From: an uncultured Bacilli bacterium
Lineage (GTDB): Bacteria > Bacillota_I > Bacilli_A > RF39 > UBA660
Assembly: GCA_934095845.1 (NCBI GenBank)
Contig: CAKOKS010000006.1
Location: 258 to 64,257 of the forward strand
Direction: 5' to 3'
Length of the DNA stretch: 64,000 nucleotides
The notes beneath the pieces were generated by a model. The model searched no databases and was not told the origin of the DNA. It worked only from the letters and a program-made list of their open reading frames with translations. The position numbers and the translations under genes were made by a program. Shown here piece by piece: positions 18,183-57,879 of this stretch. Each line of letters opens with the position of its first letter. Within the stretch, counting starts at the first letter, position 1.

Positions 18183-19388
18183 TTAGATAATTCTAAATGC
18201 TGGAGAAACACCAAAGGGGTTGAACGGATAGGTGCTATTCCAACAGCCGTTGATGTCGACGATAAGGAAGTAATCCTTACTGCTAGAATAAGCCGAACGA
18301 AGCCACCACCAATTATTTTTTCCACTATGTTGTTTTTGTACTTCTGCAAAACTGCTTGTTATTACTCCTTGATTTTTATAATAATCTAGTTGTTTCGATG
18401 TTCCTAATGCTGTATCATATTGAGCATTCTTTGAACTTGCAAAGTCACCATATATTTCTTCACTTGATAACAAGTATAATTTATCTTGTGTTTCAAAATT
18501 TTCTTCTCCACTTGTACTTCCATGTCCTGATATTACTTTTGTTGTTGCCATTACACTTTGTAAATCACTTGGAAGTGCATTGTATATTGTACCATTTACA
18601 TATGTACGCATTTCTGAATCTCTCCATCCACCCACATTTGTTCTTGTACTATAAAATTTTTGTGTCGTTATTATATCTACAAATTCTAATACAAATCCGC
18701 ATGCTGTTTCACTTGTTTCTGTTGTACATTCACTTTTATTTGCTATTCTTACTGAATGTATTCCCATTTCACCTAAATCTACTTCTTTTGTATCTCCTAT
18801 ATTATATTTGCTTGTATTTCCAATTTTTACATTTGCTGCTATTGTTGACCAACTATCTTCACTAAAAGTTACAGGTTCTGGCACATTACTTCCTAAATTA
18901 TCTCTTTCAGTTGCATTAAATGTTAATTCACATACATATTCTTCTCTTACCTCTTCTGTTGCAGTCTTGTTTAGTGTTACTGTTAACGTTCCATTAACTG
19001 AATTTTTAGCTTTAACTACTGTTGCATTATTTTCAAGTTCATTTGTTATACTTGTGTATTTTGCTGTTGTATTTTCTTTTACTTTACAAGTTACTTGTAC
19101 TTCGGCATCATAGTTGCTTGAATTATTTGTAACTTCATAATTTAACACACTTGTTTGATTTAATGTTTTTAAATCACTTGTTTCAAATGTAATTGTTTTC
19201 TTATCTTCACTTATTACATTTGTATATACGTCTGTTCCATCCAATGAAGCTGCAGTGAAAATAACACTAAAGTCATCTGTATTTTCACTTACTTTTGCAC
19301 TTCCGTTAATAATCAATGTTGTTGATATAGCAGCAAATCCCACTGCTAATAATAGTATAGCTACTACTAAACTCCCTTTCTTTTTCAT
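18183..19388 (-). CDS. Surface-family member P1: shared N-module plus one WWLRS...GVSPAFRI head domain (DUF6273-like by recollection).
   Basis: N-terminal MKKKGSLVVAILLLAVGFAAISTTLIINGSAKV... is about 85 percent identical to the N-termini at 35426-36697 and 41196-42545. The head is closest to the first head of P3. Confidence 0.8.
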   Translation of the reverse strand: MKKKGSLVVAILLLAVGFAAISTTLIINGSAKVSENTDDFSVIFTAASLDGTDVYTNVISEDKKTITFETSDLKTLNQTSVLNYEVTNNSSNYDAEVQVTCKVKENTTAKYTSITNELENNATVVKAKNSVNGTLTVTLNKTATEEVREEYVCELTFNATERDNLGSNVPEPVTFSEDSWSTIAANVKIGNTSKYNIGDTKEVDLGEMGIHSVRIANKSECTTETSETACGFVLEFVDIITTQKFYSTRTNVGGWRDSEMRTYVNGTIYNALPSDLQSVMATTKVISGHGSTSGEENFETQDKLYLLSSEEIYGDFASSKNAQYDTALGTSKQLDYYKNQGVITSSFAEVQKQHSGKNNWWWLRSAYSSSKDYFLIVDINGCWNSTYPFNPFGVSPAFRII

Positions 19389-25743: not shown

Positions 25744-26238
25744 TTATGCATCTTTTTCAACTGCATTAAATACTAGTGTACAAGTATACTCTTCAGTAGC
25801 ATCTTCTACAGAAGTTTTATTTAATTTCATTGTTAAAGTACCATTAAGTTTTCCTTTAGCAACTACTTTTGTAAGATCATCTGTAACACTATTTTCTATA
25901 GTAGTATATTTAGGAGTAGTGTTTGCTTTTGCTGTACAATTAATTGTAACATCAGCATCATAGTTACTTGAATTATTTGTTACTTCATAAGTTAAAACTG
26001 AATTATCATTAAGAGCTTTTAAATCTTTACTAGTAAATGTAAGTGTTTTTTTATCTTCGCTTACAATATCAGCATATACATCTGTTCCATCTAATGATGC
26101 TTTAGTAAATGTTACTAAAAAATCATCTGCATTTTCTCCAACTTTAGCACTTCCATTAATTATAAGTGTTGTACTTATTGCAGCAAATCCTACTGCTAAT
26201 AGTAGTATAGCTACTATTAAACTTGCTTTCTTTTTCAT
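25744..26238 (-). CDS. Surface-family member P2: free-standing N-module only (164 aa).
   Basis: Same signal/anchor and module as P1, P4 and P5. It ends at ...LVFNAVEKDA, exactly where the fusion partners begin in the paralogs. Confidence 0.75.
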   Translation of the reverse strand: MKKKASLIVAILLLAVGFAAISTTLIINGSAKVGENADDFLVTFTKASLDGTDVYADIVSEDKKTLTFTSKDLKALNDNSVLTYEVTNNSSNYDADVTINCTAKANTTPKYTTIENSVTDDLTKVVAKGKLNGTLTMKLNKTSVEDATEEYTCTLVFNAVEKDA

Positions 26239-26367
26239 TCTTTACCTCTCTTTACTTTCTATACTCAAAGTATATCACAAATTTCATTTATAATATTTAT
26301 TTTTTTACTTATAATTTGTAAATTTTTGTAAACTAAAAAGATAGATTAACTATCTTTAAGTTGTCTA

Positions 26368-29300
26368 TTATGCAATTCGGAAAGCTGGAGAGACTCCGTA
26401 GGAACTTCGTGCATAGAAGTCGTACGCAGCGCTGCTGTTCCGGTTGCCGTAGTTGATGACGTCAAGGAAGTACCCCACGCCGCCAGAAAGAGCCGAACGA
26501 AACCACCAATAATCATTACTCCCATTATATTGCTTTATTGCTCCTACATAACTACTTGTTGTTACTCCTTGATTTTTATAATAATCTAGTTGTTTTGACG
26601 TTCCTACTGATGTATCAGATGATGCATTTGATGAACTTGCAAAATCTTCATATATTTCTTCACTTGATAACAGATATAATTTATCTTGGGTTTCAAAGTT
26701 AGTTTCTCCTCTTGTTAGTCCATGACTTGATATTACTTTTGTTGAAGTTATTACATTTTGTAAGTCACTTGGAAGGGATTTATATATTGTATCATTTATA
26801 TATGTACGTAGTTTTGAATCTCTCCATCCTCCTACGTTTGTTCCGTATTGATTTGTTGCATCTGCTTCATTATAGTTATGTTTTTCTATTATATCTATAA
26901 ATTCTACTACAAATCCACATGCTGTTTCACTTGTTTCTGTTGTACACTCCCTTTTATTTGCTATTCTTACTGTTAATTCTTTAACTGGTTCTACACTTGA
27001 ATTACAAACATAGCTTGCTCCACTTCCTGAATATGATGAGCAATCATTTGTATGACTTGCTATTGTTACTTTCTTTGTATCTCCTACATTATAGTTATCT
27101 GTATTTCCTGTTTTAACTGCTCTTTGTATTGTTTGCCATGAATCTTCAAAAAACGATACTGGAACTGGTCCTTGTAGTCTAAATGCTGGTGAGACTCCGG
27201 TAGATGAACCTCTGCTACCCCAATTACCTGCATTATTAACCACAAGGAAGTAATATAAGTTGCTGGAAATAACTGAACGAAGCCACCAATAATCATTACT
27301 TCCATTATATTGTTTTATTGCTCCTACATATCTACTTGTTGTTACTCCTTGATTTTTATAATAGTCTAATTGTTTGGTATTATTATATGATGTATCATAT
27401 GTACTTACTTGATTACTTGTTCCATCTTCCCATATCTCATGTGCACTTAGTAAATACAATTTATCTTGTGTTTCAAAATTTGTTTTTTTACTTGTACCTC
27501 CCGATATTACTTTTGTTGAAGTTATTACATTTTGTAAGTCACTTGGAAGGGATTTATATATTGTGTTATTTATATATGTACGTAACTCTGAATCTCTCCA
27601 TCCACCTTTATTTGTATCTGTACTATTAAATTTTTGTTTTGTTATAATGTCTGCAAATTCTACTACAAATCCGCATGCTGTTTCACTTGTTTCTCCATTT
27701 GTACATTCACTTTTATTTGCTATTCTTACCGTATGTGTTCCAAAAGTTCCTAAATCTACTTCTTTTGTATCTCCTACATTGTATTTATCTGTATTTCCTG
27801 TTTTTACATTCGATGCGATTGTAGACCAGTCATCTTTTCCAAATTGACTTAAGCTTTCTTCCCATATTGCATACATATCTATATTTCCTGAAGTTGCTAA
27901 GTTTTTTACTGTTGCTCCTGCATTGTATGTTTCTCCTGTTATTGAATCTTTCGCCCAATTTACAAAATCATAGTTTTCTTTTGTAAATGAGTTTCCTGCT
28001 ATTGTACAATTTGTATCATATACGCATGTTGTTTTATTCATACTTCCAGTTCCACCATTTGCATTATATGTGATTGTATATGTATTTGCACTCCATTTTG
28101 CATATAATGTTATACTTCCGGTTTCAACTAAGTTTCTTACTGTTGCATCTGCTGTATATTCTATTTCTCCTTCACTTGTTTTACTCCATCCGGATATTGT
28201 ATATCCTTCTTTTGTAAATCCTTCTGTACTTAATTTACAATCTTTATCATATGTACATGTTAATTCAGTCTTTGTTCCAGACCCGCCATTATTATTAAAT
28301 ACTACTTTATATGTATTTGCTGTAAATACTGCATACAATGTTTTACTTGGATAATTTGTATCTATGAATGTTCCATTTACTGTATTTGTTACTTCATAGT
28401 TCTTACTTCCATTTTCTTTTTCCGAATATCCTGTTAATGTATATCCAGTTTTACTAAATCCATTATTTGTAAATGCTTGATTTTCTTTTCCATACAAGTA
28501 TTTTACTTCTTTTTTTGTACTTCCATTTATAAATGTTACTTTCAATTCTTTTCTTTCATAATAGTAATCTACTTTGGCACTTCCATCTGCTAATATTTTT
28601 ACTGTTTGTTTACTTGGTGTTACAAATCCTTCATATGTTTTTAATTCAGCTTCTACTGTTTTATTTGTTGTTCCTGTATATACTATACTTTCTGTTGCAC
28701 TTCTATATGTTTTATCTATTGTTTGTAAATAATAATTTACTGTATATTTTGTATTTGTTTCTTCTGTCCATTTGGCTTTTATTGTTATATCTTTTGCATA
28801 TTTATATACACTTTCACTTGTTATACTTTCTGTATCTAAATGCCATCCTCCAAAGTTATATCCTGTTTTGGTTGGACTTGTTATTTCTCCTATTTTACTA
28901 TCATATGTTACAGTTTTACTATTTACTGTTGTTCCTCCATCTGTATCAAAGTTAATTGTATATGTATTTGGATTACATTTTACATATATTGTTTTATCTT
29001 CTCTTGTACTTATACTTGTTGTATATTTTATTTCTCCTGTTGGTGTATCTCTATATCCACATGTATATCCTGTTTTTGTTGGAGTATCTAAAGTAATATT
29101 TGTTTCTTCATAATTCGCTGTTAATGTTACTGTTCCATTTAATTCACTTGTTAAGTTTTTAAATGTTGTTGCTTTTGTTAAGTTTCCATTCCAAGAAGTT
29201 CCATTTGCTAAAGCTGAGGAAGATAAGTTTTCTCCTGTCCATCCTGTAAATACTGGATTTCCTGTATAACTTGTTTTTGTTAATGTTGCTCCTTGATTAT

Positions 29301-30447
29301 TGGCATCTATTGTTATTGTTGTTTGTTTTGTTGGATTTGTTATTTCCACATCTTTATCAAACATTGCTCCTGTTGGTGCTTTTTCTGATAATCCTCCTTT
29401 TAAGTTATATGCTATTGTATATGTATTTTCTCCATAATATGCATATAATTTATTTGTTGTTGTTTCTATTATAAATGTATTATCTGTTATTTTTTTTCCG
29501 TTTTCATCTTTCCAATATAAAAATTTTATTCCTTCTTTTGTTGGTATTGGTAGATCTGCATATCTTGTATTTTCTGTTACTTCTATTTCTTCATCTGCTT
29601 CTCCATTATTTTTTACTAGAGTTATTTTTATCTTTTTATTATTTTCTTCTTTTAGTTTATTTTCTGTTATTTTATGCCCTTCATTAAATTCTATTTCTCC
29701 TGTATGTGTTGTTGTTACATTTACTGTATCTATGGCATTTTGTTTTATTGTTTCTTTATCTTTATTTACATCTAAACTATCTATATAATATAGTTCATGT
29801 TTTCCTCTTTCCAAATTTCCTACATAAAAGTATCCATAATCATCTGTTTTTACAAATTGAGGATTTTCTGAAAATACTGCTACGTTAGCATTTGGTATTA
29901 CATTTCCTTCTTTATCAGTGAAATATCCACTTATACTATATACTTTTTCATTTATTGGTGTTGTATCTATTGTATCTCTTTCTTCGGCATTAAATTCTAA
30001 TTCTACTGTTATTGGTATTCTTTTTTCTTCTAATGTTACTTTTTTTAGTTTTATTTCTAGGGTTCCTTTTCTTGTTTCTCTGGCACTTAATTTCTTTTCT
30101 GCATCAAATGTATTTGTTACTTCTATTTCATTTGTATTATCTACTTTTACCGTTACTTTTACACTTGCATCATATATTGTACATCCATTTGTTACATCAT
30201 ATTCTAGTGTTGATGTTTCATCTTTACTTTTTAATATTGTTTCAAATGTTATTGTTTTTTTATCTTCACTTATTATTTCATTTGTATAGTCTTCTTTATT
30301 TAATGTTGCTCCTGAAAAATATATTTTGAAGTCTCCTTCATTTTCTGCTATTGTTGTTACTCCATTTATTATTAATGTTGTTGTTAGAGTAGCAAAGCCG
30401 ATTGCTAGTAATAATATTCCAATAAATATTAAGTTTCTCTTTTTCAT
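26368..30447 (-). CDS. Surface-family member P3 (1359 aa): divergent N-module, CarboxypepD_reg-like domain, multiple Listeria-Bacteroides (Flg_new/InlB B-repeat) repeats, a MucBP-like segment, and two WWLRS...GVSPAFR head domains.
   Basis: Repeats of the type NTYTI.Y..NGG......P.K.GY.F.GW. Head 1 resembles the P1 head and head 2 resembles the P4 head. Confidence 0.85.
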   Translation of the reverse strand: MKKRNLIFIGILLLAIGFATLTTTLIINGVTTIAENEGDFKIYFSGATLNKEDYTNEIISEDKKTITFETILKSKDETSTLEYDVTNGCTIYDASVKVTVKVDNTNEIEVTNTFDAEKKLSARETRKGTLEIKLKKVTLEEKRIPITVELEFNAEERDTIDTTPINEKVYSISGYFTDKEGNVIPNANVAVFSENPQFVKTDDYGYFYVGNLERGKHELYYIDSLDVNKDKETIKQNAIDTVNVTTTHTGEIEFNEGHKITENKLKEENNKKIKITLVKNNGEADEEIEVTENTRYADLPIPTKEGIKFLYWKDENGKKITDNTFIIETTTNKLYAYYGENTYTIAYNLKGGLSEKAPTGAMFDKDVEITNPTKQTTITIDANNQGATLTKTSYTGNPVFTGWTGENLSSSALANGTSWNGNLTKATTFKNLTSELNGTVTLTANYEETNITLDTPTKTGYTCGYRDTPTGEIKYTTSISTREDKTIYVKCNPNTYTINFDTDGGTTVNSKTVTYDSKIGEITSPTKTGYNFGGWHLDTESITSESVYKYAKDITIKAKWTEETNTKYTVNYYLQTIDKTYRSATESIVYTGTTNKTVEAELKTYEGFVTPSKQTVKILADGSAKVDYYYERKELKVTFINGSTKKEVKYLYGKENQAFTNNGFSKTGYTLTGYSEKENGSKNYEVTNTVNGTFIDTNYPSKTLYAVFTANTYKVVFNNNGGSGTKTELTCTYDKDCKLSTEGFTKEGYTISGWSKTSEGEIEYTADATVRNLVETGSITLYAKWSANTYTITYNANGGTGSMNKTTCVYDTNCTIAGNSFTKENYDFVNWAKDSITGETYNAGATVKNLATSGNIDMYAIWEESLSQFGKDDWSTIASNVKTGNTDKYNVGDTKEVDLGTFGTHTVRIANKSECTNGETSETACGFVVEFADIITKQKFNSTDTNKGGWRDSELRTYINNTIYKSLPSDLQNVITSTKVISGGTSKKTNFETQDKLYLLSAHEIWEDGTSNQVSTYDTSYNNTKQLDYYKNQGVTTSRYVGAIKQYNGSNDYWWLRSVISSNLYYFLVVNNAGNWGSRGSSTGVSPAFRLQGPVPVSFFEDSWQTIQRAVKTGNTDNYNVGDTKKVTIASHTNDCSSYSGSGASYVCNSSVEPVKELTVRIANKRECTTETSETACGFVVEFIDIIEKHNYNEADATNQYGTNVGGWRDSKLRTYINDTIYKSLPSDLQNVITSTKVISSHGLTRGETNFETQDKLYLLSSEEIYEDFASSSNASSDTSVGTSKQLDYYKNQGVTTSSYVGAIKQYNGSNDYWWFRSALSGGVGYFLDVINYGNRNSSAAYDFYARSSYGVSPAFRIA

Positions 30448-31405: not shown

Positions 31406-31604
31406 TATAAATCACTTCCCTACTACAGCCTTTGCTGAAATTTACGTCCTACATATAAGAAAGTGATAAGCATCTTTTCTTTGCTTCTCGAATGGTTATT
31501 ATAAAGACTAAAATACGTATGTCAATAGACTCGACAAATGTCGACAAAATTAGAACCTAAAAATTTAATACAAACAAAAAACAGGCAATTTTATTGCCTA
31601 TTTT

Positions 31605-41195: not shown

Positions 41196-42545
41196 TTACT
41201 TAATTAAAGTTATACGAGCATATCCATTACCAGATTTAGCACAATTTTCTGTTGGTGTTGAGTTTACACATGTTGTGCTTATAGTTTTAGTTGATTCTTC
41301 TGTAGATTCTTCACAGTTATAACAATACATTACTTTTTCTGTTAAAAGTGAGTTTCCTATATATCCTGAGCCTCCTGCTCCTGATGAAGCACAACTATTA
41401 CCACTTTTAAAGCTTGCAGCTCCACCTCCGTAGAAACCTCCTCCGCCTCCACCGGCACCGAAAGTTCCTGTTGTTGAATTACCACTTGGAGCTGAACCAC
41501 CTTTTCCAAATGATGCTTGAGAAGCATCACTATCTCCGCGAGTACCTGCTGTTGTTTGTGTACCTCCAGTTGGAGTAAAGCAACTTCCTGTTCCTTTAGA
41601 ACCAGTTAATCCACCGCCAGAACCACCAGGACGTCCACTATTTTCTCCTGCTCCGCCTCCGCCTCCAGAGACAATAAGTATACTATCTTTAGAATTTTCT
41701 AAAGTAGATAAGAGTCCAGAAACCAATGACATATGAGTAGCTCCGCCTCCGCCACCTCCAGGATTAGATATTGATCCAGCAGTTTTTTGACCAGAGCCTC
41801 CGCCATTATATCCATTTTTAGCTGATATAGATTGACCACCAATATATATGTATAGTAAACTATTTTCATTTAAATCTAAGTTTCCAGTTGAATATCCACC
41901 ATATCCACCTATTGATTTATTACCACTACCTGAGCCTCCTTGTGCTCCCCAAGTTTCGATTTTGTATGTTCCACTTATTGGAACGGTAAATGTTTGTTCT
42001 CCACCAGTATAATCAAATGTCCATTCTGTTGGGCCTGAATAACTTTCTCCTAATGTATCTCTTTCTACTGCATTAAATGTTAATTCACATACATATTCTT
42101 CTTTTACTTCTTCGGTTGCTGTTTTGTTTAATGTTACTGTTAATGTTCCATTTAATGAAGTCTTTGCTTTTACTACTGTTGCATTATTTTCTAGTTCATT
42201 TTTAATGCTTGTATATTTTGCTTCTGCATCATCTTTTACTTTACAATTAACAGTCACCTCTGCATCATAGTTTGCTGAATTATTTGTTACTTCATAATTT
42301 AATACCGATGTTTGATTTAATGTTTTTAAATCACTTGTTTCAAATGTAATTATTTTCTTTGTATCATCTACTACTGAACTATATACATCCTTTCCATCTA
42401 ATGTTGCTGATGTGAATATTACTGAAAAGTCTTCTGTGTTTTCAGAAACTTTTGCATTGCCATTTATTACTAAAGTTGTACTTATGGCAGCAAATCCTAT
42501 ACAGATTATTAAAATTGTAATTATTAACATATTTCTCCTTTTCAT
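41196..42545 (-). CDS. Surface-family member P5: N-module plus a glycine-rich domain.
   Basis: The N-module is about 80 percent identical to P1 and P4. The C-terminal part has repeated GG.GGG blocks (WGAQGGSGSG..., GGGGGGATH, SGGGGGAGE, GAGGGGGGFYGGG) and a Cys-containing tail. Confidence 0.8.
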   Translation of the reverse strand: MKRRNMLIITILIICIGFAAISTTLVINGNAKVSENTEDFSVIFTSATLDGKDVYSSVVDDTKKIITFETSDLKTLNQTSVLNYEVTNNSANYDAEVTVNCKVKDDAEAKYTSIKNELENNATVVKAKTSLNGTLTVTLNKTATEEVKEEYVCELTFNAVERDTLGESYSGPTEWTFDYTGGEQTFTVPISGTYKIETWGAQGGSGSGNKSIGGYGGYSTGNLDLNENSLLYIYIGGQSISAKNGYNGGGSGQKTAGSISNPGGGGGGATHMSLVSGLLSTLENSKDSILIVSGGGGGAGENSGRPGGSGGGLTGSKGTGSCFTPTGGTQTTAGTRGDSDASQASFGKGGSAPSGNSTTGTFGAGGGGGGFYGGGAASFKSGNSCASSGAGGSGYIGNSLLTEKVMYCYNCEESTEESTKTISTTCVNSTPTENCAKSGNGYARITLIK

Positions 42546-42656
42546 TATACACACACCATTCTAGGATAATTATACAATATTTTAGTTTTATTTTTACTTT
42601 TATATTATTATTGTGTGTAAAAGTTTACAAATTTATTGTAAAAAAATAGATAACAT

Positions 42657-54423: not shown

Positions 54424-55770
54424 TTATCTTTCGTAATCACCTTTTTCTTTACTTAAATCTAAATCTTTAATATCATTATCATCTAATACATTATTTTCAT
54501 ACATATCATTAACTACAACAATATATTTATCATCTTTATCATACCAACTATGAAGTTTATCGTGTAAAAAAGATATTAATTTACTAATTTTATCTTTCCA
54601 ATAATCTAGTGTATTTTTTAAATCACTTATTTTAGATTTTAAAAATGATATTTCATTATCCTTTTCTTTAATCGTATCATTTAAAGTTTTAACTCTTAAA
54701 TTAAGTGCTTCGTTATTTTCAGTAAGAGTTTTAATTTTATTATTCTTATCTTTTAATTGTTCGTGAGCATTAACTAATGTATTTGATAGAGTTTGTATTT
54801 TATCATATTCTATATTAGTGCTATCTACTTGTTCAATAAAGTTGGTAAAAGAATCTTTATCTTCTTTTGATAAAATATAATTATCCTTATTTAATTTAGA
54901 TATTTTTAATTTATCAATTTTATCTTTTATATCTTTAGAGTTTTGTTTTAACTCTGAAGATTTTTTATTTGCTTGTTTTAAATTTTCGGTATTCTTTTCA
55001 ATTTGTTTTTTTATTTCAATATAGTTGTCCATATCAGATACATAAATATCTCTATTTCTACCTTTTTGTTTTTGCTTTAAAGTAGATTCTAAACTATATA
55101 TTTGATTAAATTCTTCAATACATAAGGTTCTCATTTTATCTTGTAATCTAATTAAAGATTCTTTGGTAAATACATCTGATTTACCAACTTGTTTTTCCAT
55201 ACCATTTTTATTTTTATATTTTATTGGAACACCAACAATATGCAAATGTGGACTTGTTTCATCATAATGAATAATAGCACTTGCTACTTTAAAATTAGGA
55301 ACAAGTAATTCTAAATCATCAACTCGTTTTTTATAAACTTCGGACATTTTCTTTCTGAAATTTTCATCTTTTGTATCCCAATATTCTTTATCTCCAAGTT
55401 CGAGAATTATTTCACAAGCAAGATCTTTCTTTTCATTATTAGATACATTATCAAAGTAATTATCTATCATTCTACTATGTCTAGATTGTTTAGAATTGTA
55501 TTCAAGTCTTGCTTTTTCAAATTCACTTAAATATAATTCTTTTACATCATCAAGTGGAGAAGAAGTACCTCTTACTATTTCTATTAGTTCTTGATTATCA
55601 TCATATTTTCTATAATTATGTTTATCTACTTTTGATAATTGTCTTACATTTTGAATAGCATTATTTGGTAAAGATGTTGTTCCACTTAAATTATTTTTAC
55701 CATTTTGTTTAGATATATTTTTTCTATTTTTATCACTACCTAAATGTAATGAATAAGCAAGTTCTGACAT
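54424..55770 (-). CDS. MobV-family relaxase.
   Basis: IIHYDETSPHLHIVGVPI (HxDE..PHxH) and a long coiled-coil C-terminus. Confidence 0.75.
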   Translation of the reverse strand: MSELAYSLHLGSDKNRKNISKQNGKNNLSGTTSLPNNAIQNVRQLSKVDKHNYRKYDDNQELIEIVRGTSSPLDDVKELYLSEFEKARLEYNSKQSRHSRMIDNYFDNVSNNEKKDLACEIILELGDKEYWDTKDENFRKKMSEVYKKRVDDLELLVPNFKVASAIIHYDETSPHLHIVGVPIKYKNKNGMEKQVGKSDVFTKESLIRLQDKMRTLCIEEFNQIYSLESTLKQKQKGRNRDIYVSDMDNYIEIKKQIEKNTENLKQANKKSSELKQNSKDIKDKIDKLKISKLNKDNYILSKEDKDSFTNFIEQVDSTNIEYDKIQTLSNTLVNAHEQLKDKNNKIKTLTENNEALNLRVKTLNDTIKEKDNEISFLKSKISDLKNTLDYWKDKISKLISFLHDKLHSWYDKDDKYIVVVNDMYENNVLDDNDIKDLDLSKEKGDYER

Positions 55771-55879
55771 TGATTTCCTCCTTTCTAGAAGTGACCACTT
55801 GAGTGGCCATTTTGTTCATCCAAAATTTCTAACTAACCCCCTAGGAATTTTGTACGTTCCATACAAAATATCCAGTGGG

Positions 55880-55898
55880 CTAAGGTTTAACACCTTAG
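55880..55898 (-). promoter_or_regulatory. Candidate oriT inverted repeat/nick region of IME-B.
   Basis: The minus strand reads CTAAGGTGTTAAACCTTAG (7 bp arms), related to the IME-A motif TTAGGTGTTATTACTTTAG. It lies in an unusually GC-rich intergenic stretch upstream of the relaxase. Confidence 0.35.
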
Positions 55899-56022
55899 GA
55901 TCCGTTTACTTTATTTCGTAATAACTATAAACTTCGTAAATAGTTAAAACTACATATAGTATTAATTTTTAAATTGCTATCGCCACTTTCATTTACTTCG
56001 TAAGCAAAACGTGCCACGCATT

Positions 56023-57879
<1,857 letters not shown>

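Follow-up and report, generated by a model that had tools for sequence, protein, structure and literature searches.

The 64-kb stretch of DNA from an uncultured Bacilli bacterium analyzed here (64,000 nucleotides; the window) raises the question of how a short GC-rich block came to lie at the very end of gene P3, and whether this block is still being rewritten. A preliminary description of the window had read it as the variable region (VR) of a diversity-generating retroelement (DGR) acting in trans. We propose that the block is a DGR-written VR at the tip of a DUF6273 domain, that it is now a relic in the lineage of the window, and that it was spread by recombination; we give this full statement a probability of roughly two in three, and its first part, that a DGR wrote the P3 block, is very probable when taken by itself. 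The gene and the parts of its 3' end are as follows.

26368..30447, minus strand: gene P3, 1359 aa, from the open reading frame (ORF) list and its translation.
26385..26501, minus strand: P3 VR, homologous to the template repeat (TR) and running from TTCGTTCGGCT to GTCTCTCCAG; delimited by alignment to conspecific TRs and by composition.
26491..26508, minus strand: 5' conserved flank TGGTGGTTTCGTTCGGCT (WWFRSA), adenine-free, with 1 mismatch to the family consensus; TR homology starts within it.
26371..26394, minus strand: 3' flank GTCTCTCCAGCTTTCCGAATTGCA, similar to an initiation of mutagenic homing (IMH) element; its first 10 nt are common to the TR, and the rest differs from the ATTTCTATAA of the TR (IMH*-like).
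26404..26418, minus strand: 15-nt block TTCTATGCACGAAGT (or the same placement shifted by one base), absent from every TR found.

The variable codons of P3 (26398-26493, minus strand) are enclosed between WWFRS and GVSPAFRIA, and 19 of these 32 codons end in C, compared with 68 of the 1313 codons in the remainder of the gene. The block has 56.2% GC and 19.8% A, whereas the remainder of P3 has 28.6% GC and 48% A; thus, both the counts given earlier (19/32 C-ending codons and about one fifth A) and the sharp contrast with the surrounding DNA were accurate. The most GC-rich 100-nt stretch of the whole window is the P3 block itself (57%, against a mean of 25% and a standard deviation of 6), and its C excess is carried by third positions rather than by whole codons. 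The N-terminus of P3 is a hydrophobic anchor module, and the protein also has Flg_new (Listeria-Bacteroides) repeats and a pair of DUF6273 head domains (Pfam, Flg_new 4.9e-40; DUF6273 6.3e-34, split over two stretches), and the Pfam match places the GC-rich block at the C-terminal tip of the DUF6273 domain. In the literature, DUF6273 is described as a target of DGRs whose VR lies at the C-terminal end of the domain (PMC11792537, PMC10743442). In an AlphaFold (AF2) model of the last 266 residues of P3 (pLDDT 81, pTM 0.85), confidence was lowest within the variable block, and this head model matched phage DUF6273 and tail-fibre models with E values down to 4e-11. The genes around P3 are housekeeping genes (LeuRS, signal peptidase I, Fpg, and Pol I), which indicates that the locus is chromosomal and not part of a phage.

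As the preliminary description had remarked, the window shows no machinery of its own: tblastn and blastn of the 64 kb found no TR, no reverse transcriptase (RT), and no accessory gene. When one genome per species was scanned for the adenine-free 5' flank, about 30 loci were obtained from low-GC genomes, all of them metagenome-assembled genomes (MAGs) of uncultured gut 'Bacilli' together with 'Firmicutes bacterium CAG:582'. In three of these loci (L021, L083, and L098), the block occurs again approximately 0.9-1.1 kb downstream of the VR as an adenine-rich copy, the TR, and the order was VR, a conserved ORF of 150-187 aa, TR, and an RT of 355 aa with a YMDD motif; judged by their sequences, these cassettes are textbook DGRs. 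Longer contigs gave the site of the cassette as rpoA, rplQ, DUF6273 cis-target, accessory gene, TR, RT, 81-aa ORF, T2SSF, and prepilin peptidase. The relatives contain one cassette plus several remote DUF6273 genes with the same flanks, a pattern that agrees with the action in trans proposed earlier. The element occurs in the species of the window: L043 (MAG CAKONX) is of the same species (95.4% identity to window positions 31588-35659), and L099 and L102, which are 97% identical to the pil region of CAKONX, possess the accessory gene, the TR, and the RT. A full-length 355-aa RT together with a TR was found in the conspecific loci L099, L102, and L118, samples ERR13898505 and ERZ26858495 contain a full-length RT, and TRs that could be aligned to P3 and P2 came from conspecific L099, L102, and L116-L120 and from the sister species L021 and L083.

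The TRs have 38-40% GC and 42% A within genomes of 25-30% GC, are 28 or 29 codons long, and have a core of TCTCCAGATTTCTATAA followed, about 4 nt further on, by ATAGAACAGGTAAAAT. Two TR alleles were distinguished, namely TR-a (...AAC GGC AAC TGG AAC AGC ... GGA GTC) and TR-b (...AAT GGT GAY TGG AAC AAC ... GGG GTC). None of the fetched loci contained a TR longer than 87 nt, and a metagenome scan for GTTCGGCT-N85-112-TCTCCRGATTTCT gave only chance matches in unrelated high-GC contigs. These templates could be compared with the VRs of P3 and of two further DUF6273 genes of the window, P2 and P1, each of which has a single C-terminal DUF6273 domain (Pfam).

35426..35551, minus strand: P2 VR (gene 35426..36697), 28 codons, with an IMH-like flank identical to that of P3 and with the diagnostic bases of TR-b.
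18183..18308, minus strand: P1 VR-like block (gene 18183..19388), with the flank GTTTCTCCAGCATTTAGA and without an IMH-like flank; weak adenine bias.

With the 15-nt block removed, P3 has the diagnostic non-adenine bases of TR-a and is changed at 19 of the 35 TR adenines compared with 7 of the 49 other bases (Fisher p=1.3e-4). P2 is changed at 16 of 34 adenines and 4 of 50 other bases relative to TR-b (p=5.6e-5); P2 and P3, although in the same genome, therefore bear the marks of different TR alleles (b and a, respectively). In P1 the bias was weak (17/35 adenines and 11/49 other bases; p=0.02). The intact VR/TR pairs of L021, L083, and L098 were of equal length and were changed at 22/34, 25/34, and 20/36 adenines, respectively, but at none of the 50-51 other bases. 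A TR mutated at its adenines, given its 38-40% GC and 42% A, accounts for the increased GC of the block and for its NNC codons. An active pair is expected to show near-zero non-adenine differences and equal VR and TR lengths; P3, with seven non-adenine changes and a 15-nt insertion, departs from this pattern, and the earlier expectation that mismatches would fall only at template adenines was not borne out for P3 against TR-a.

The VR and the TR both contain GTCTCTCCAG and then split, with CTTTCC following in the VR and ATTTCT in the TR (full junctions, GTCTCTCCAG-CTTTCCGAAT in the VR and GTCTCTCCAG-ATTTCTATAA in the TR). The IMH-like 3' flank suggested earlier was thus corroborated, and the P3 flank appears to behave as the VR side of an IMH/IMH* arrangement. 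It is identical at P2 and is conserved at the nucleotide level in the cassette-adjacent cis-targets of L021, L083, L102, and L118. The flanks had also been described as conserved in all paralogs, which does not hold: only P3 and P2 have the 3' 27-mer GTCTCTCCAGCTTTCCGAATTGCATAA, whereas P1 and the internal head copy of P3 carry ...TCTCCAGCATTTAGA... instead, and the 5' 18-mer TGGTGGCTTCGTTCGGCT is exact only in P1 and P2, with one mismatch in the P3 copy (TGGTGGTTTCG...) and two in the internal copy. Taken together, the adenine bias, the IMH/IMH* junction, and the composition of the TR give good support to the mechanism that had been proposed for the origin of the block. Composition, domain, adenine bias, allele pattern, and the cassettes of relatives were observed directly; we infer that homing wrote the P3 copy and that this copy is now probably inactive here.

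The 15-nt block lengthens the P3 VR from 28 to 33 codons; it is also present in L106 and L180, and the placement chosen gives the fewest non-adenine mismatches in the alignment of P3 with its TR. As it lies near the 3' end of the VR, it would be erased by homing from any known TR. Among 102 parsed homolog tails, 77 were 41 aa long and none was 46 aa long, and their sequences varied widely across the family. A duplication of neighboring TR codons as the source of the insertion fits only in part, a hand alignment accounting for only about 4 of 7 non-adenine positions.

We then compared strains. Two loci of sample ERZ27287307, L105 and L106, match the window at 99.1% identity over 17.6 kb and 11 kb, respectively, and the P3 VR is identical in L106 despite the 0.9% divergence, which is not what the population hypervariability anticipated earlier would give. 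A look-up of the 164-aa ORF downstream of P3 returned ten contigs with identical flanks, among which the last head domain occurs in three alleles: that of the window, also found in L106; a second, identical in six samples; and a third, identical in three. The alleles are therefore invariant across 2, 6, and 3 sequences, respectively. The differences between them span the whole head domain while the VR is invariant within each allele, and the same pattern was observed at P2; variation between strains replaces whole head domains and is not confined to VR codons, as had been supposed. At the P2 locus of L180, the P3 VR of the window was found with only 3 nt different, including the 15-nt block and the T variant of the 5' flank, and we concluded that finished VRs move between paralogous loci by recombination. 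In allele B of the P3 locus (L107-L111 and L113; six samples from different studies), the last head domain is cut off by an internal in-frame TGA that all six share; downstream of this TGA, the VR and the IMH-like flank remain intact, with no difference among the six.

The cassette is absent from most of the sampled loci of the species. In 16 of the 18 informative rpoA-linked conspecific loci, the cis-target runs directly into the 81-aa ORF, and each of the remaining two has a damaged copy: L123 encodes an RT with YTDD and a premature stop, and in L126, the cis VR is truncated and the accessory gene contains a stop. A frameshifted accessory gene is all that one sister MAG retains. A 9-bp inverted repeat (GTTATTTAT ... 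ATAAATAAC) around a GC-rich 37-nt loop lies between the stop of the cis-target and the accessory gene (L021, reverse strand, approximately 300-370 of the oriented locus; L126, 8730-8790), and in strains without the RT, the left edge of the cassette deletion is directly after GTTATTTAT. The reading given in the preliminary description can therefore be divided. As to origin it is right, as the DUF6273 domain, the cassette in relatives, the adenine bias, and the IMH-like junction all bear out; current activity is unproven and, in view of the seven non-adenine changes, the insertion, and the invariance of the VR, this part is probably wrong.

From these results, we propose the following course of events. 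The RT would copy TR RNA that is rich in AAC and AAT codons, misincorporating opposite template adenines, and the cDNA would replace the VR as far as the IMH-like flank GTCTCTCCAG|CTTTCC; AAC and AAT codons would thereby become NNC and NNT codons, with GC raised and A depleted. The source would be a chromosomal element outside the window, consisting of a DUF6273 cis-target, an accessory gene of 150-187 aa, the TR, and the 355-aa RT, and this cassette, placed between rpoA-rplQ and the T2SSF/prepilin-peptidase operon, would serve several remote DUF6273 genes in trans. According to the diagnostic non-adenine bases, P3 would have been written from TR allele a and P2 from allele b. In a subsequent relic phase, the cassette would be deleted or damaged in most conspecific strains while the VR gained non-adenine changes and the 15-nt insertion. 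The VR would then be stable between close strains, and homologous recombination would swap the head cassettes that bear it, both among strains and between P2 and P3. More tentatively, finished VRs might persist after loss of the retroelement as a standing repertoire of tip alleles, with retrohoming as the process that creates them and recombination as the process that redistributes them between paralogs and strains.

The closest competitor of this reading is that P3 is still an active target in trans, rewritten by an intact DGR outside the window that has a 33-codon TR matching all non-adenine positions. We consider this unlikely, although several observations are compatible with it: the IMH-like flank of P3 is intact and identical to those of the cis-targets, three conspecific loci retain a full-length RT and TR, TR alleles vary among strains so that an unseen allele is conceivable, and minority variants would be hidden in assemblies. 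Such a template should, however, exceed the 87 nt that bounded every TR in the fetched loci and the metagenome scan, and continuing rewriting does not fit a VR that is identical in a strain 0.9% diverged and nearly identical at another locus in a third strain, nor the absence of the cassette from 16 of 18 sampled conspecific loci, nor the marks of two TR alleles in one genome. It is less probable still that recombination alone accounts for the data, with the GC-rich tips being old allelic cassettes swapped as in pilin-type antigenic variation and owing their composition to amino-acid preference or foreign origin. That whole head domains rather than tips alone differ between alleles at both loci, that the P3 tip stands at the P2 locus in L180, and that every allele is invariant across samples would all follow from it; but it leaves unexplained why differences from a known TR fall at adenines, why the adenine-free 5' flank is identical at the nucleotide level, and why the intact pairs of sister genomes have zero non-adenine mismatches. 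Recombination thus fits better as the spreader of finished VRs than as their source. A patch from a higher-GC donor, acquired horizontally, or a chance compositional outlier is hardly credible: the sharp GC step (57% against 25%) would suit it, yet this step coincides exactly with the TR-homologous block, the same codons are GC-rich in all low-GC relatives, the TR itself has 38-40% GC inside genomes of 25-30%, and the C excess sits in third positions and not in whole codons.

Some points weigh against the DGR-relic reading that we prefer. P3 differs from TR-a at 7 of 49 non-adenine bases, and no TR found could have templated its 15-nt insertion. The cassette may still be present elsewhere in the genome, beyond the window that was searched, and low-level variation of the VR within populations would be invisible because metagenome assemblies give a consensus. 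The accessory protein is not recognizable as the accessory variability determinant (Avd): by single sequence and by a 7-sequence profile, comparisons with Pfam and NCBIfam gave no significant match and those with the PDB gave none. Finally, a Foldseek search of the P3 head model against the PDB returned nothing below E=1; the C-type-lectin fold of the head is therefore an attribution taken from the literature and should be regarded as presumptive.

The proteins of the cassette are themselves unusual. The RT of the relatives (355 aa, YMDD, PF00078 2e-14, phrog_1423) is encoded about 300 nt past the TR, and in the PDB its sequence is closest to those of group II intron and retron-type RTs. For motif 4 of DGR RTs, SQ is the usual hallmark; among homologs P0001-P0116, 91 of the 94 clade members having a YxDD motif showed [ILVM]GxxxAQ upstream of YMDD. 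The accessory ORF is conserved, occupies the position of Avd, and has phrog_30516, whose function is not annotated, as its sole match. Possibly, this protein represents a new accessory family in an RT clade with AQ instead of SQ in motif 4. Among the matches returned, no RT contig came from sample ERZ27287307, which contains the 99.1%-identical strain. A cassette just past the right end of the window, considered on grounds of synteny, was not supported: mobile-element genes are found at that end, and no rplQ-pil part matches the window. This mobile-element remnant (54424-57873) comprises a Mob_Pre relaxase (54424-55770), an ORF with a recombinase zinc ribbon (56023-57063), and an ORF with a resolvase N-terminal domain (57235-57873), the latter two resembling a split large serine recombinase.

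Two further features of the P3 locus were delimited.

27199..27273, minus strand: block of the internal head domain equivalent to the VR, 38.7% GC, 7/25 codons ending in C, with the 3' flank GTCTCACCAGCATTTAGA and without an IMH-like flank.
26337..26357, minus strand: hairpin AAAGATAG-TTAAT-CTATCTTT with a T run, 11 nt past the P3 stop (DNA fold z = -2.9).

The internal head copy had been said to use ordinary codons; its composition is instead intermediate, as in a faded signature. Its orthologs in two other species (L073 from 3927; L078 from 432) have a GC-rich, VR-like block that is nearly identical between the two, whereas the block of the window is different and AT-richer, which suggests that the internal head holds an old, fixed VR that was later replaced in the lineage of the window. 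The hairpin looks like an intrinsic terminator, and similar hairpins follow P2 and P1. The P3 ortholog of the 99.1%-identical strain L105 (from 16251 to the end of the locus) was recorded with 1678 aa compared with 1359 aa in the window, the difference falling within the Flg_new repeats; sample ERZ27287307 also contains a P3 version of 1360 aa (L106).

The N-terminal module of P3 (MKK..ILLLAVGFAAISTTLIING..., approximately 170 aa) is common to five genes of the window (18183-19388, 25744-26238, 26368-30447, 35426-36697, and 41196-42554) whose C-terminal parts differ. The last of these (minus strand) encodes a 452-aa protein that shares its N-terminal module of about 170 aa with P1 and P2 and that had no family match in NCBIfam. 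It contains the second-highest GC stretch of the window (41361-41680), within a glycine-rich C-terminal domain of GGN codons; this stretch was considered as another VR and rejected on account of that glycine-rich, GGN-codon character. The signal peptidase I gene (34380-34898) adjoins P2, and in the relatives the cis-target adjoins T2SSF and prepilin peptidase.

These results give a compositional island a known mechanism and add to the known DGRs a chromosomal one that serves several DUF6273 targets in uncultured, small-genome gut Bacilli related to 'Firmicutes bacterium CAG:582'. They also provide a population view of a decaying DGR within one species, in which a TR with an apparently full-length RT is found in some strains and a damaged cassette in others, the majority lacking the cassette altogether; written VRs outlive the cassette and are shuffled between loci. 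For genome scans this counsels caution, as a VR-like signature is no proof of ongoing hypermutation; conversely, orphan VRs can be recognized by alignment to the TRs of sister strains. The general understanding of DGRs is unchanged, similar leftovers having already been described in Treponema denticola.

Compared with known systems, the closest in target are the phage DGRs directed at DUF6273, found in the Faecalibacterium prophages Lelie, CP11, Roos, and Pioen and in the 'tentaclin' phages nd4 and nd12 (PMC11792537, PMC10743442). They have the same domain, a C-terminal VR, a TR rich in AAC and AAT, and a single cassette that can serve more than one target gene, and the P3 head model matches phage DUF6273 models. 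The targets described here, however, are chromosomal surface proteins of small-genome gut Bacilli, with an anchor module and Flg_new repeats, rather than phage tail proteins, and the cassette occupies a fixed chromosomal site after rplQ and is mostly gone in the lineage of the window. In gene order (target VR, accessory gene, TR, RT), in adenine-specific mutagenesis, in the VR at the 3' end of the gene, and in IMH and IMH* that diverge right after a shared GC-rich stretch, the system resembles Bordetella phage BPP-1 (mtd-avd-TR-brt); it differs in being chromosomal with many targets, in an accessory protein without detectable similarity to Avd, and in an RT motif 4 of GxxxAQ (91/94). The fate of the element is most like that of the DGR of T. 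denticola, which is present in some strains and absent in others and serves remote targets in trans; strains without the core have kept target VRs that differ from the TR mostly at adenines, which the authors read as leftovers of cassette loss (PMC4891356). Presence or absence of the cassette among strains, remote targets in trans, and leftover adenine-biased VRs are thus common to both, although the target fold family and the phylum are different; unlike in T. denticola, there is direct evidence here that finished VR cassettes moved between paralogous loci, and several intermediates of decay were recovered (an RT with YTDD and a stop, a truncated accessory gene, and a truncated cis VR).

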